A stretch of DNA of 64,000 nt from Patellaria atrata CBS 101060 (Eukaryota). Below the pieces are notes generated by a model. The model was not told the origin of the DNA and did no database searches. It saw only the letters and a list, made by a program, of their open reading frames with translations. This document shows, piece after piece, positions 1 to 7,114 of this stretch. A program made the translations under genes and the position numbers. The stretch lies in assembly GCA_010093705.1 (NCBI GenBank), contig MU006093.1:669462-733461 (forward strand), in the 5' to 3' direction. The stretch's first letter is position 1. Each line of letters opens with the position of its first letter.

Positions 1-1887
1 CCTCCCCAAGCACCCTCGAGCTCGTCTCCATCACTTGCACAAACAGCTCTTCGGCCTCCTTCCACCGTCCCGCAAGGCTTGTTGCTAGCCCTACCATCCC
101 CATACTGCTTAATGTGTCCTCATGCTCCCTACCAAGAAGTTTTTTCCTAACCTCCATTGACCTCATCGATAGTTTCTCAGCATCGCTCAGACTTCCTTTT
201 TGCCACGCATACGACGCTGCCCTATACAACAATAGAGCCCACTGTCTTAGGCATTCCTCAGACTTAGGCGGCTGTGACAGCGCCGACTTAACATGTGGAA
301 AGAGCGCTTGACATTTGGCCCAGTTCTTATATCCCCCTGTCGGAAATTCTATGCAAAGATTGTTGATGTACTGCTGTTTCCACGTCTCTAGTTGGCCCTG
401 CCCTTCCAACCACTTCCGTGTGGCCAGCTGCACAAGCCTATGCATGTCAAATGTGATTGCATCAGTGGTAAGTGCGATAAACGAGTAGTTCCTTAACGTA
501 AGAATATCCTCTTCGAACCTGTCGTCGATGCTGGCTTCCGACCTGCTATCGTCGCTATTACTATTTTCACCGTCTACGTTACAAGCTCCTACGTCCCTGT
601 GTCTATTTCCCGTCCCACTTTGAGTGCAAATAAGCGCTTCGGGAATCCCCTGCCGGTCAAAGAAACTCATTAAGGATAATAGGTTTGCCGCCGACCGCCT
701 TGTGTAGAGTATAAAGTCGAAGGAGATTTGCCATGTTAGAAGAATAGAGTTCTTAGCTTCGTAGTCTCTTCGAAGATGACCTCCCTCGTAGTCTAATAAG
801 CTTGTCTTTTTCCTGTCGCTCTTATAGAACTGGTCTAGATACTGCCGTATTGAACATCTTGGTGCTCGTTGTCGGATATACGCAGCCGCTTGCACAAGAG
901 CGAGTGGTATGAATTCGAGCGCTGTCGCTAACTCGGCTATACCGTCGTTATCTATTTCCTCCCCTAGTTTCTTTCGTAGAAGAGCTTGCGCGCCTATATC
1001 ATTCATCGGCTCGATAGTTATAATATCGGTGTCCTCCACTAACTCCCGCGCCGCTTTCCTTGTCCAACTAGTGACTAAAATCGCGCCGTTCTTACTCTGG
1101 GGCAAATAGGATGAGAGGTGCCGTTGACGAGCGCGATCTCTACTGCTAGCCTGTGTCTTATGGCTATTGCTCGCTTGTAGAGAGAGAAAAACGCCATCGT
1201 CGACATTATCGAGGACCAGCAGCCACTTGCCGTTCTTCTCGCTCCGAAGCCAGTTATAGACAAGCTCGAATATATCTGCTCGTGGGTCTTCCCGACCAGC
1301 CAGCTTGACCTGGTCCGCGATGGCTCGGTAGCCTTGCTCGACGCGGGCCTCGTTGCTGGCGTGTACCCAGAATACCCACGTCTCCGGCGATCGATCTGCG
1401 GTTCGATAGCAGTGCTCGATAGCAAGTTGCGACTTCCTATCCCTGCGTTAGGTGCGAGAACTGGGCCGAATGTCTTCTCCTCTTACCCCACGCCGCCGAA
1501 GCCGACTAACGCTATACGAGATGCCGGCGTGGAGCATTTCTCGTGTATCTGATCGAGTAGCGTGCCACGATCGACGAAGTCTGGGTCACGGCAAAATGGG
1601 ACGACGCAGGAAGGGCTCGGCGGGGTCTCTGGTCTCTCTATTAAAAGCGGGATGTTAGTATCCTTTCGCTATGACGCAAAGTTGCCAGCAACGACTCACC
1701 ATGGTACTGGATATTATAGGTTTCTGTTACGGAGCCTAAATAAAACTTAGTATAAGAAGGATATATCGCTGTGAATAAGAGATATACCGATTATATTGCC
1801 CGATAAATTATCGGCTACAATACCACTATTGCTAGAGATCGGGCCAAAATTAGTACCCGTCGGGGTTGCTGTCCCGTTCCTAGCCAT
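1..1887 (-). CDS. Fungal NLR (NB-ARC + TPR) with short N-terminal putative amyloid-signalling leader; 3' end runs off window
   Basis: Exons 1887-1788, 1735-1700, 1637-1487, 1436-<1 with GT..AG introns and branch sites. Translation: MARNGTATPTGTNFGPISSNSGIVADNLSGNIIGSVTETYNIQYHERPETPP..VPFCRDPDFVDR. P-loop GFGGVGKSQLA, Walker B WLLVLDNVDD, EFIPLALVQAAAYI, MHRLVQ, then TPR repeats (LGREHEDTLSSM..GRWKEAEELFVQVME). No stop codon found in exon 4 on hand translation. Confidence 0.9.
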
Positions 1888-2397
1888 TACTGCTACAGAG
1901 GGCTATGGATACTAGGACTGGACACTATAGTAGCGTATCTAGACGAGTAAATAAACACAGGAGTAGCTTTACCCTTTACTTAACCTACTTTAAATGAGTC
2001 GGCTTAAACACCGTAGGACCGCGATCGAGTGCGTGGTCTAACCTCTCCTAGCTTAAGGGTCTTGTTCAGGTCGTGCACCGTTTCAGACCATGCAACAGTC
2101 GCCCCACCAAAAATTGCACCCCATAGAGTGATTTTGAAAATGATGCAACTCGCTCTATATTTGATATATCTATACTAAATTGTATGATGTTGTGAATAAG
2201 AGGCTGCACTTTCCGTCTATCTATATATCAGGGCTCTGAAATCTCTGTGGCAGTCGTGATTGCCATCGGGGCCGACCAGTCGTGGGATTGACCGTTTCTA
2301 CCTCTACTACCTCAGTAATATTATCTAAGAGTTCTATAGCTAGTGGTATGATAATCTGCTTTTTCCATTTCGGTTGTTGAGGGGGTCTAGGTGTTTT

Positions 2398-2862
2398 TTG
2401 AGCCTCCAAGCGATAGTCAACCTTGCTCTCGTCAAGAGTGAACTAGGTAAGCTGGACGAGGCGGAGCAGCTGATTCTTACGGGTCTACCGATTACGGCAC
2501 GTAATTTCGGTGATGACCATATCGTATATCTGTGGGTCCGGTAACATCTGAGCAAAATAGAGGTTCTGCAAAAGCACTGGGAAGAGGCGGAGAAACATTT
2601 ACTTAACGTCACCGAGAAGGTAGAAGAGCCTCCTCTAGGGAAGAAGGAGGTATCACCTCGCAGACTAGGAGGGCTTGTGCAGCTTGCCACTGTTTACAAT
2701 GTGCTAGGTAAGTATGAGGAATGCGATCGCGTCGTTGATGAGGCGCTCGATGGGTTCAAGAAGGTTAGCGGGACTGAGCATCCAGTTGCGGCAAAGTTGA
2801 GGAAAGATTGGGAGATGTGGATGGTAACGAGGAAAGGGATTGGCTTCGATGGGAGCGAATGA
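2398..2862 (+). pseudogene. C-terminal TPR fragment of a second NLR-like gene, degraded
   Basis: TPR-like text (AIVNLALVKSELGKLDEAEQLI; LATVYNVLGKYEECDRVVDEALDGFKKVSGTEHP) with an in-frame TAA at ~2541, a probable local frameshift with TAG codons near 2620-2640, and no upstream NB domain. Confidence 0.7.
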
Positions 2863-3418
2863 ATATTTGGTGCTCCTCGTGTTGATGGAGAAACAGACGT
2901 TGAATCGTCAATTCTCATGCTCCTACGTCGGCCGTTTCGTCAAACTATACCGTCGTCGATCAGGGAGAGATAATTAATAATTTCTTTATCCTCCAGCGTA
3001 AGGGTTATTTTTCTAGCTAATATATCTACTATCTAGACGTAAACGTTATCTTAGAGCTATTAGAGAGGCTCCTTGAGAGGTAATCGTATATATTTAGAAT
3101 ATTTTATCTAGGCCGCCCAGTATTCTAGTAGGTAAGCTGCTCGTATAAGGTAATGAATAAGATACTTCATTTAGAGGCTCTTCGTGAAGAGTAGTAGGAT
3201 GGCGGAGATTCCTATATGTGTTTGTATCGAGAGTCGTGGTGTAAAAGTACGTATAGGCTGAGAAAGGAAGTCGTGGAGGTTACTAATTCTCTGTTAAGAA
3301 TTTAAGATCCATATACTGGTACGTTAAAAATCGTACGGATCCTCTGGTCTTTCGTTGGAAAATATTCATAGGGCTTTAAGTTAATGGTACATAATGATAG
3401 ATTTCAGATCGAATTGAC

Positions 3419-3537
3419 ACATACGACCACAGAATAAGGAAAATAGGGCATCCCGTCCGCTCTGCCATACTTAAGCCTTATATCGGTGCAGTAGTAGTTG
3501 AGTGGGTGACCATCAGCGAATGCGCACTGTTGTATGT
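3419..3537 (+). rRNA. 5S rRNA gene (dispersed copy)
   Basis: ACATACGACC...CCCGTCCGCTC...ACTTAAGCC...TAGTAGTTGAGTGGGTGACCATCAGCGAA...TGTTGTATGT, 119 nt, terminal helix intact, followed by T-run Pol III terminators. Confidence 0.96.
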
Positions 3538-5189
3538 TTATTTTTTGCAATTTTTTTTTGGTGATATGGTGGGATTGCAGGACGGTCCGTTGGAACTAAA
3601 AGCGGGGATAATGTTGCATTTTTGCATTTGTTAAGTCGGATTGGAATAATGCGGGCTCTTGTGGATTATGGCTGTATGTATGAAAGGAGCTATGGGAGGG
3701 TGTGACAAGAGAACATGATATAGGTAGATAGGTCCACTGTGAACTCTTATTGTAATACTAGCTGTTGAAGTTTGGATTGGTTGAGCGTAGAACTGGTGAG
3801 AGTGTGGGAACGTCGCATTGAAGGTTAATATTACAAACTTGCTCTAACGAAATTATTGGATCGCAGAAAAATGCTCAGGGGGTTAGTTCTAACATTGTAT
3901 TATGGTATCTTTTTGTAGGCGATATATGCTGTAGGGTTATACCTGGAATAATCCAATACTCCAAGCAACCTACTCGCAAGAACTCTTTTGCGGTCATCAT
4001 TATTCTCACAGCTATGTGGTGTGTCATTCAAGGACTTTCAATGCCGTGGAACCACATTTCTATATACTGCGAGCATGGCCCAAGGGGTCCATCGAAGCGA
4101 TATCGTAAATTTAATATATAGCACTTTAACTTCCCCTCGTTTTGCGTGAAGTCCCCCACCTCGCCGACTACCTTACTCCTCGGGGAACCCAAGAACCTAA
4201 AGACATACCCACCAGATCGGTTTCTCTCAGCTCAGGAGATATTTGCATCGGGCGTCTGGGACGGGAGTCTAGATCGTTTTTGACTCCAGAAACCGGCGTT
4301 GAGGATCCGTGATGCAGTTGTGGGGCTCTTCGGATTCGATACTTGTTGATATTAAAGCCCCTCGAATCTGATTTGTAGTCGAGTGAGGTATCGATGTACG
4401 AGGTGTTCTGTTCTGAGAATATTCACTATTCTCCAAGAGTCCGCGTTACGCACCATTTCTCCGGGATGCGAAGCAAATCCCCAGACGACTCGACACTGAA
4501 GTCTAGAAGCTCACCCATTTCGAGTAGTCTCTCTGTATAACCTCAGCAGCGGGGTAGGAACAAAGGAATCTGCAAGAGAGATGGCTTTGGTGCTACAAAA
4601 GTAAAAAGGCGGTTACATGAACCGGACAGACCAGATGGATCTGATTAGTGAAGCTTGAACCATAGCACACGTTTGAATACCACTCGAGTTAAGAAAGAAG
4701 CTGATTGGCCCTCTACAGTTTTATCAACTCGTCTCTCCTCTTCTGTGGAATCATCATAAATGCCTCAGCGGTTATACAGTAGTGCTGGGAGTATCTCCGT
4801 AATAAATTTTCAGTATTCCTCGCCGAGGATCAAGTCATTTCAGCAAGAATCTCGGCTTCATGTCATTATTTTCTCAGGTAGCAATTGCTACACGCGTCAA
4901 TATCAAGGCTTTGGTGGTACCTCAAACCTTCTCGTCGCATTCTGAATACAGGGAACATTATGGACTTATAGGGATGAGGAATAGCCTCTTCTGTATTTCT
5001 CGCTTTCAACTGAAGAAGTGGTTACCCTTCATTTAGATGTCGCTGGGCACCAAAAACACAAAACGTAACAGAGGGAACCGTCCTGATGAAATAAAGTGTA
5101 TAAAGAGAGTAGAAAGACCCGCTGAGTGTGCTTTGGATAACTTAAAAATCTCTACCTAAGTGAAAGCAACCTCTCTAAAGTCGTTCATC

Positions 5190-5601: not shown

Positions 5602-6549
5602 GACGAGCAATTGTGGAAGCTGTCAATCTTTGCTTAACCTCTGAGTTGGCTTATCAACTCTTGCTGGGGAACTAGAAGGATTCGCGTAGTATTTGCTCGA
5701 GGAGTGTTTTGGGATTCCTGTGGGGTTAGCGTTGATGACAAAACGAGGCACAATTGACCGCTTATCGTTCGAGCAGAGTTCCAGTTCGTCAAAGTCACGT
5801 ATTTGGATAGTAATTCTGTGCTGGGTTACCGGTCGTCTTCGAATGATTGCATGAGGTTACCTCCTGACTAAAAGAAACCTAAATTCCTTGATCCGAGTAT
5901 TAAGGATATCGTGCCTTTCTATTAAGCTTGAACCTAGAACCTAGCAATGCATTTAGTGAAGTGATAGCAATGTAATGTAAATGTGCCCGATTATAAGATG
6001 TGGCGCATCGTCTACATTTAGTCCTTGTAAACCCGATGCTGGAAGTTTTCGTTCAGAGGAAGCTCTCTGGTTTCCCCTCATTCTTGTGATGCAGCCACAC
6101 TAACGCATATATATCTCAGCTTACCTTTAATTTCCCAGTCCGAGTAATGCGAAAACATATACTAATTCTGTGAAGCGACCCGAATTTCTGATGTTGCATA
6201 CTTGGGAACCTTTTTATTTAGACAACTGGTTGGTCTCTTATTGGCTTCTGCCCGACATGAAGATAGTATCATTGATAGTCGGCAGCGGTTGGAAGACCTA
6301 AAGCATATGGAAAACGTCGCACAGAAACGTAAACCCTACGAAGAAGAGAGTCTCGAACTGCGGCTAGAGATCATGAGCTTTTTTGAGAGTGCCGCAATCA
6401 AAGATCAAAAAATGGAAAGAGGAGGTCTTGGGGGCGAGAAAAGGGTATAAATAAAAGTTTAACGACCTGAATTGTAGAAGGAATCAAAGCGGTCAAACAT
6501 TCTCCGAGAAATCCTTTAGATATATCCCTATCGGTCCACGAAAGCCAAT

Positions 6550-7114
6550 ATGAAGTCATATCTTCTAGTCGTCCTCACAGCAGTTGCTGCTATGGCCAAC
6601 CCAGTCGAGATGTCCGACGCGGAAGCTCATGCTTTGGCCATGAGGGATGTTGTTGAAAGAGCAGTAGGCTCATCATGCTCGTACAATGTAAGAGGGTCAT
6701 TTTGTAGACGTGGGAAGACAGACTAATTCAATCGCCATAGGGTATGTCCGGGTCATGTCAACACACTGGACATTGCGGGTCGACACTAGACTTCTATGTC
6801 TCCGGCAAATGCCCAAATGGTAAGGCCTGTCCAATACTATTGTTATTTCTCAAATATATTGGACCGGGTACTCATGAAACTTTTTCCGGTAGATCCGGAC
6901 GACGTCAGGTGCTGCATCACCAAGTCTTGTAACAATAAGAAGGGCGGTTACGGTTGGTGTATGAATAAGAGCACTGCAGGATCCTTTTGTAAGGAATATG
7001 ATGGGCATTTTGAAGCGTACGTTGTCCGGAACCTTCTGCTGAAGAAGTTGACTGACGTCTTGTAGTGGATTCTGCCCCGGTCCTAATGATGTTGCGTGCT
7101 GTGTCATGACTTAG
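6550..7114 (+). CDS. Small secreted protein with two tandem 6-Cys domains (129 aa, 12 Cys)
   Basis: Exons 6550-6687, 6741-6819, 6893-7016, 7066-7114, all GT-AG. Signal peptide and propeptide ending VER, then CSYNGMSGSCQHTGHCGSTLDFYVSGKCPNDPDDVRCC and CNNKKGGYGWCMNKSTAGSFCKEYDGHFEAGFCPGPNDVACC. TATAAATA upstream at ~6446. Confidence 0.88.

Follow-up and report, generated by a model that had tools for sequence, protein, structure and literature searches.

A two-exon N-terminal leader of a Patellaria atrata NLR as a candidate amyloid-type signalling motif shared with the C-terminal tail of a SesB-like hydrolase

Introduction

Which protein could respond to an NLR-type receptor that carries only a short peptide ahead of its nucleotide-binding domain? 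This question is raised by an NB-ARC–TPR gene at the left end of the window, i.e., the whole stretch of 64,000 nucleotides of Patellaria atrata CBS 101060 that was analysed (contig MU006093.1, here C5, positions 669,462 to 733,461). A known precedent is PNT1 of Chaetomium globosum, described in two papers as an NLR with a short N-terminal PP motif and without an effector domain (PMC5485727, PMC7885112); the gene beside PNT1 encodes SBP, a putative lipase with the PP motif at its C-terminus, according to parts of the same papers and of a preprint (PMC5485727, PMC7885112, bioRxiv 10.1101/2020.01.06.895854). A preliminary description of the locus, made from the DNA alone, proposed that two small exons of the receptor gene encode a signalling motif of this general kind, and noted that no matching effector is visible in the window.

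The receptor gene and its leader

The predicted parts of the receptor gene within the window are the following:

1788–1887, minus strand: NLR exon 1, with the start codon and most of the motif (100 nt, 33 codons plus 1 nt)
1810–1830, minus strand: motif core N-S-G-I-V-A-D, with an Asp codon (1812–1810) at the Gly site of the family
1736–1787, minus strand: intron 1 (52 nt, GT...AG, CTAAG branch-like site)
1700–1735, minus strand: NLR exon 2, with the second motif half GS...TY.I (36 nt)
1638–1699, minus strand: intron 2 (62 nt, GTGAGT...TACTAAC...TAG)
1487–1637, minus strand: NLR exon 3, with the ERPETPP linker and the first part of the P-loop (sequence and gene models of homologs)
1437–1486, minus strand: intron 3, interrupting the P-loop (50 nt)
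1–1436, minus strand: NLR exon 4, with the NB-ARC-type domain, DUF7779, and the first TPR repeats (domain matches)

Translation starts at an ATG at window position 1887, and in the predicted spliced product a leader of 45 aa is followed by ERPETPP, an intact P-loop (GFGGVGKS), and TPR repeats. Exon 4 extends beyond the left edge of the window to a stop at C5:665779; the frame is open across 1709 codons, and since N fills about 3.4 kb of the TPR-coding part, the receptor may be broken inside this masked stretch. An in-frame stop is found 5 codons upstream of the ATG, and the equivalent Met is the start of outside homologs; therefore, no upstream effector exon is indicated, in agreement with the earlier proposal that the receptor has no effector domain of its own. 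Outside ORF calls quit the motif at the position of intron 1, and the gene models P0007 and P0025 have both motif halves fused straight onto RPETPP. Two sequencing runs (X1 and X2), both DNA-like, contain no joints between exons, which speaks neither for nor against splicing; a contig of X1 is identical to window positions 1694–2009, and it may belong to the source data of the assembly.

Four paralogs of the window receptor, with three introns and identical splice sites, are located on contigs C3, C8, C14, and C23. The matched part of exon 4 is identical to that of the window receptor at 94% (C3), 93% (C8), 86% (C23), and 85% (C14). Among the paralogs, exon lengths vary by multiples of three only (100/106, 33/36) and intron lengths by 1–4 nt (48–52, 61–64), so the exons, which differ in threes where the introns do not, behave as real exons should. 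At the sequence level, the two-exon, 45-aa leader is thereby confirmed as a real feature of this NB-ARC–TPR gene, and the two small exons placed directly before ERPETPP and NB-ARC in the preliminary description are borne out, splice sites and frame being kept in the four paralogs. A sixth related fragment, on contig C120, begins within the domain. When the genome was searched with the leader, either as DNA or as protein, the five receptors and nothing else came up, and the P0007 leader, used in a word-based search, retrieved P0007 alone. As judged by eye, all four paralogs sit amid transposon-like frames (flanks L033, L034, L036, and L037), and three of them are at or close to contig ends. As for other NB-ARC–TPR genes of the genome, six of the seven inspected look like HET-domain fusions, again as judged by eye. 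Finally, the NB-ARC domain of the window receptor clusters with those of C3 and C8, whereas its leader clusters with that of C8 alone, and this difference in grouping makes the window gene a mosaic.

The partner hydrolase and its broken copies

The C3 paralog lies head-to-head with an intact hydrolase gene on the opposite strand, with 528 bp between the two start codons. This gene has three exons and codes for an alpha/beta hydrolase of 351 aa with an AHSLGG elbow and an invariant His. The database protein P0121 (labelled Patellaria atrata) is identical to it over the 280-aa query and shares its last exon, and the Pfam matches of P0121 to DUF676 and Abhydrolase fall just below the cut-offs; an AlphaFold2 model of the hydrolase (pLDDT 81) resembles alpha/beta hydrolases. 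From sequence and model, the partner is classed as a SesB-like alpha/beta hydrolase with a predicted nucleophile Ser elbow and a predicted catalytic His. In the last exon, I..N.G.V.G.I is followed by GS..TY.I, the same as in the leaders. A SesB-like hydrolase with a matching C-terminal motif, one of the partners that the preliminary description had suggested looking for, was thus found, although next to the C3 paralog. The expectation of a separate effector with the same C-terminal motif has stood, with the qualification that this effector belongs to the SesB-like hydrolases and not to the HeLo pore-formers.

The hydrolase has fared differently beside the other receptors. In C8, a broken copy is adjacent to the receptor, with four stops, an internal deletion, and a surplus of C-to-T and G-to-A changes, its motif exon being present; in C23, the adjacent copy is deleted and truncated; and in C14 and the window, the shared upstream DNA ends about 140–150 bp before the ATG and the hydrolase is absent. 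The intact and broken hydrolases beside the paralogs therefore indicate that the original unit consisted of receptor plus hydrolase, both of them intact at C3 only. As a separate observation, the broken hydrolases of C8 (L079) and C23 (L036) share a near-identical loss of 250–270 bp between two similar ...LGG-coding stretches; because both copies lost nearly the same stretch in this setting, it seems that a short repeat was the site of the deletion. What stands in place of the hydrolase in the window is a set of repeat pieces with a broken TPR fragment, and the surroundings of the receptor start are as follows:

1888–2041, minus strand: remnant of the promoter region common to NLR and hydrolase at C3 and C8 (homology stops at 2036–2041)
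2054–2403, no strand assigned: dispersed repeat pieces in the position of the C3 hydrolase (matched at 88–93% in the vicinity of the C8 and C14 paralogs)
2344–2862, plus strand: TPR-encoding remnant of a different NLR-like gene, broken, with an in-frame stop (2542–2544)
3419–3538, plus strand: dispersed 5S rRNA gene (Rfam RF00001, 78.4 bits)
6520–7065, plus strand: multi-intron gene for a small, cysteine-rich, apparently secreted protein (one exon tested, without a Pfam match)

Within the 64-kb window, no partner effector with a matching motif was found, as had been noted before. Window positions 2662–3395 recur at 92% identity on C3 (L033:8464–9198), about 6.6 kb from the start codon of the C3 paralog. 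A HeLo-like (PF17111) pseudogene at C5:663422–663877 (L031), some 6 kb beyond the left edge of the window and convergent with the receptor, was considered as a partner, lying about 1.8 kb beyond the receptor stop, and was discarded on account of its three stops and missing motif.

Other candidate effectors of the genome were also considered. The motif was found at none of its HeLo (nine), HeLo-like (four), and PNP_UDP (three) loci, the motif scores of the last being at most 7.2 bits. A first genome pattern gave 29 matches and missed the hydrolase, as it demanded Ser/Thr after Ile, and among 30 examined of 34 pattern matches in this gapped assembly there was no second effector with the motif.

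A motif on both receptors and hydrolases

Leaders and hydrolase tails alike share the core consensus N-x-G-V-V-x-G (general form N-x-G-φ-[VI]-x-G), spaced as in PP and RHIM, which are defined by a Gln at the centre. The centre residue is V in 24, I in three, and A in one of the 28 leaders from outside the genome, and V in 19, I in nine, Q in two, A in one, and D in one of 32 tails; the second core Gly is present in 26/28 outside leaders and 22/32 tails. Within the best 120 of 731 receptor homologs, three (P0003, P0007, and P0025) carry the same Q-less leader, and a pattern search found the PP-type G-x-Q-x-G within the first 45 residues of 45. A profile built from eight leaders retrieved 25 more proteins at E ≤0.001, 23 of them short, isolated ORF calls that may or may not head NLRs, most of which exit the motif at the intron 1 point; the remaining two are one receptor of NB-ARC–TPR type and one NACHT-ANK receptor (P0249). 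The leader is therefore conserved, being present in 5/5 genome copies, 3/120 closest NLR homologs, and 25 further proteins.

The relationship between the two sides holds in both directions. A receptor-side profile of the 28 outside proteins gave at least 8 bits for 13/120 hydrolase tails, versus 1/2400 shuffles, the C3 tail itself scoring 6.4 bits, below the 8-bit mark. Conversely, a tail profile was made from 32 of 45 aligned hydrolases, after removal of P0121 and of 12 whose tails, shorter than 45 aa, seem in many cases to be truncated at the intron. With this profile, from which the C3 tail is excluded, 26/28 outside leaders reached at least 8 bits, compared with 3/45 PP leaders, and the C3 and C14 leaders scored 13.1 bits each (equalled by 1 and 0 of 1000 shuffles, respectively). 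In pairwise alignment to the C3 tail, the leaders of C3, C14, and C23 were equalled by 6, 2, and 23 of 2000 shuffles. The tail-bearing hydrolases have source labels of genera of the Dothideomycetes, Sordariomycetes, Eurotiomycetes, and Leotiomycetes. An NB-ARC tree of 125 rows, from which P0264 was excluded, places the eight receptors with the variant in a single clade (38 members, support 0.99), the rest of which comprises six PP-bearing and 24 other sequences, and this mixture of N-termini implies that they have been exchanged within the clade.

As in two-component NLRs generally, a short N-terminal motif takes the place of the effector domain here, and the same motif is found at the C-terminus of a separate effector for the C3, C14, and C23 leaders and for the family, not for the window leader in pairwise comparison. 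The best explanation, to which we assign a probability of about 75%, is an amyloid-type signalling motif present in two copies, one on the receptor (the leader) and one on its partner (the hydrolase tail). By sequence and by analogy, the reading advanced in the preliminary description is favoured by the conservation of the leader, its location at the position of PP, and the occurrence of the same motif on an effector tail; we infer amyloid behaviour by analogy from position, composition, and pairing. In terms of sequence, the motif is probably a family of its own, plausibly related to PP.

An initial scan of metagenomes found nothing. In the best 80 of 356 loci with related hydrolases, an adjacent NLR–hydrolase pair with the motif was seen in 0/80, so that, compared with these 80 metagenome loci, such a pair was seen in the Patellaria atrata genome only. 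Other tail types were noticed along the way. For example, the more distant hydrolases P0170 and L089 have a PP-like G-x-Q-Q-F tail, and the hydrolases P0174–P0201 have tails of an N-rich type, e.g., INNxGxITNL...Q. A further head-to-head NB-ARC–TPR/hydrolase pair is found at L144:4800–7005; the tail of its hydrolase is N/G/Q-rich, with RDFYQG and RDWVNG repeats, and matches neither PP nor the new profile.

Drift of the window copy

In the window leader, Asp replaces the near-invariant second core Gly, a change common to the C8 paralog only and present in 0/32 hydrolase tails, and the window and C8 leaders also share a two-residue deletion. On the tail profile, the leaders of C23, C8, and the window score 9.3, 6.7, and 4.9 bits, the last value being within the top 1–5% of shuffles, and in pairwise alignment to the C3 tail the window leader is equalled by 501/2000 and the C8 leader by 365/2000 shuffles, i.e., at chance level. 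On the outside receptor profile, the window leader scores 25 bits. Judged by sequence, the window copy is the weakest of the five, orphaned and drifted, and that its leader could still seed the C3 hydrolase is a tentative proposition, with odds a little below even.

The strongest rival explanation follows from this drift: the family would signal and the window copy would not, its leader being a decaying remnant and its receptor either inert or acting via another route. We consider this a serious contender, somewhat short of an even chance. The hydrolase is gone from the window locus, the leader combines the Gly-to-Asp change with the deletion, and its match to the only intact tail found, that of C3, is at chance level; in addition, leader pN/pS is about 0.5–0.6 in comparisons that involve the window versus 0.3–0.4 among C3, C14, and C23 (on small counts), the RIP index is 0.65 over 1501–2000 versus −0.40 for the whole window, and pseudogenes flank the receptor on both sides. 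However, the window receptor retains its start codon, its frame, and all its splice sites, its leader still shows more synonymous than non-synonymous change (pN < pS), the receptor-profile score remains as high as given above, and the leader aligns better to the family tails P0144 and P0142 than to the C3 tail. Besides, many NLRs per one unlinked effector is an arrangement described in part of the literature (PMC9815663).

Non-NLR partners in metagenome loci

Tails of the new family occur in three metagenome loci (L087, L088, and L099) of the best 80 of 356. On the short contig L088, no gene neighbours the hydrolase. In L087 and L099, the hydrolase is head-to-head with a gene without an NB-ARC or NACHT match, whose N-terminus is tail-like:

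L087:892–3060 and L099:1500–4716, minus strand: non-NLR partner genes with an N-terminal copy of the motif

The L099 match is locus-specific (0/2000 shuffles, first among 35 tails), and the N-terminus of the L087 partner matches its own tail weakly (94/2000 shuffles) and the C3 tail more strongly (0/2000). The two partners are homologous in their second domain (E 1e-9), and neither has a Pfam or Atlas match; a non-NLR partner was not found in the Patellaria atrata genome with one query. These two loci are a lead and not a rule, and a role as adaptor or as second effector would suit the partner just as well. If they hold up, amyloid-type signalling would extend beyond NLRs.

Proposed mechanism and significance

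On the preferred reading, that of a two-sided amyloid-type motif, the ancestral unit would be an NB-ARC–TPR receptor head-to-head with a SesB-like hydrolase bearing the same motif at its C-terminus. This unit would have been duplicated at least four times, with an intact hydrolase retained at C3 only, and therefore the other receptors could signal only in trans. Binding of a ligand at the TPRs would lead to oligomerisation of the receptor, by analogy with NWD2/HET-S and PNT1/SBP as described in parts of two papers (PMC5485727, PMC7885112); the clustered leaders would then form a beta-arch amyloid nucleus, this seed would template the tail of the hydrolase, and conversion of the tail would switch on lipid hydrolysis and a defence or cell-death response. 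Several receptors per one unlinked effector have been proposed for other motifs, as part of one survey states (PMC9815663).

A broader and doubtful extension is that of a widespread, unclassified, Q-free family with a RHIM/PP-type core, attached to one SesB-like subfamily across Pezizomycotina and served by both NLR and non-NLR triggers (L087, L099). If this were true, the Gly-to-Asp haplotype of the window and C8 would represent natural variation, either a loss of seeding or a change of specificity. To our knowledge, few families of fungal amyloid signalling motifs have been described so far. The cores of PP, RHIM, and BASS3 are defined by a central Gln, and a Val/Ile-centred two-sided family with two Gln members would offer a direct test of the need for a Gln ladder and of seeding specificity. 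The genome provides a ready panel of five receptor leaders, two haplotypes, and one intact effector, and, were the hydrolase the sole effector, it would be a clean system for the role of amyloid-activated SesB-like lipases.

Comparison with known motif families

Test patterns for the known motifs were taken from parts of three papers (PMC9815663, PMC5485727, and PMC12261475), the core definition coming also from part of a preprint (bioRxiv 10.1101/2020.01.06.895854). The preliminary description could not assign the leader to a known family and allowed for a new variant, and this has been upheld: the leader fails PP, sigma, HRAM, PUASM, and GDQN, while NLR34, NLR39, and NLR40 were compared by description only. 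With regard to sigma (PF17106), no match was obtained on leaders or tails and none among 25 of 41 families listed, whereas a positive control, the head-to-head SesA/NACHT-ANK region and hydrolase sharing the sigma motif at L125:1–5846, was matched. The HRAM rule (hydrophobic residues at 3, 6, 8, and 14; Gly at 17) was satisfied by 0/5 genome leaders, and a loose HRAM pattern by 5/28 outside leaders and 9/32 tails versus 7/45 PP controls, so that the outside members show no better fit than PP does; the HeLo effectors of HRAM systems bear a double repeat, and no motif was found beside the 13 HeLo or HeLo-like loci of the genome. The pattern of PUASM (FxGxGxQxxGxGxF, paired with a PNP_UDP effector) and that of GDQN were both found in 0/5 genome leaders, 0/28 outside leaders, and 0/32 tails.

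A first question of assignment concerns PP. The leader might be no more than a PP motif that has diverged, still belonging to the PP family and able to cross-seed with PP, and there are reasons for this view: it sits at the position of PP in 45 of the best 120 of 731 homologs, it has the same N.G...G...G spacing, Q is found at the centre of 2/32 tails, the tail profile gives at least 8 bits for the three PP leaders already mentioned, and PP too controls a SesB-like lipase, SBP, according to part of one paper (PMC7885112). However, the PP core NxGxQxG occurs in 0/5 genome leaders, 0/28 outside leaders, and 0/32 tails, compared with 43/45 PP leaders (a set chosen by a similar pattern); a PP profile gives maxima of 9.1 bits for genome leaders, 6.4 for outside leaders, and 4.7 for tails; PF17046 has no match in the genome or in the short leaders; and the second half of the motif is longer in the tails, an extension that PP lacks. 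We therefore regard identity with PP as rather unlikely.

Less probable still is that the motif corresponds to one of the unnamed classes NLR34, NLR39, or NLR40 of Wojciechowski et al. (2022), compared by description. In the parts of that survey that bear on them, these are ascomycete N-terminal motifs of 24–28 aa, and NLR40 occurs on NACHT-ANK/WD receptors (PMC9815663), much as the new motif occurs on the NACHT-ANK receptor P0249. In the same parts, however, NLR39 is described as G-hydrophobic-Q-hydrophobic-G and NLR40 as HRAM-related, no genomic-neighbour effector is given for the three classes, their listed rows hold no NB-ARC–TPR annotation, and the sole hydrolase-seeded motif id of Fig E, PF07819_017, co-occurs with a sigma-cluster motif (S5 Table, PMC9815663). 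The remaining alternative, pairing of the shared segments as homotypic tags of small soluble beta-structure and not as amyloid, is favoured by an AlphaFold2 beta-hairpin in the tail (residues 316–335, moderate confidence) and by a core without Q and rich in Val/Ile, and yet it is very improbable, given that, in the relevant part of PMC9815663, validated fungal amyloid motifs were discovered by their position, their length, their content of N/G/S, and their pairing on two sides, and that an amyloid fold is beyond what a monomer model can show. Neither motif nor pairing is described in the literature searched, mostly outside subscription journals and including parts of the reviews PMC12881547 and PMC10197012.

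The candidate amyloid-type motif can thus be placed among the known systems. It resembles PNT1/SBP/HELLP (PP, PF17046) in the short-motif NLR, the lipase-like effector (adjoining the receptor at C3), and the N-x-G-φ-X-φ-G spacing; it differs in having V/I for the central Q, no pseudo-palindrome, and a longer second half, and also in that no motif-bearing HeLo-like effector was found and 4/5 receptors are without an intact neighbour. With HET-eN/SesA/SesB (sigma, PF17106) it shares a SesB-like hydrolase effector, unlike it in having no sigma match; in the Atlas, P0121 is near DUF676 clusters with sigma in 15–33% of members. From NWD2/HET-S (HRAM) comes the assumed templating, although here a hydrolase, which has a single copy of the motif in its tail, takes the place of the HeLo effector. 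Finally, PUASM and GDQN, as presented in parts of PMC9815663 and PMC12261475, show the same pairing of a receptor N-terminus with an effector C-terminus, with other types of effector.
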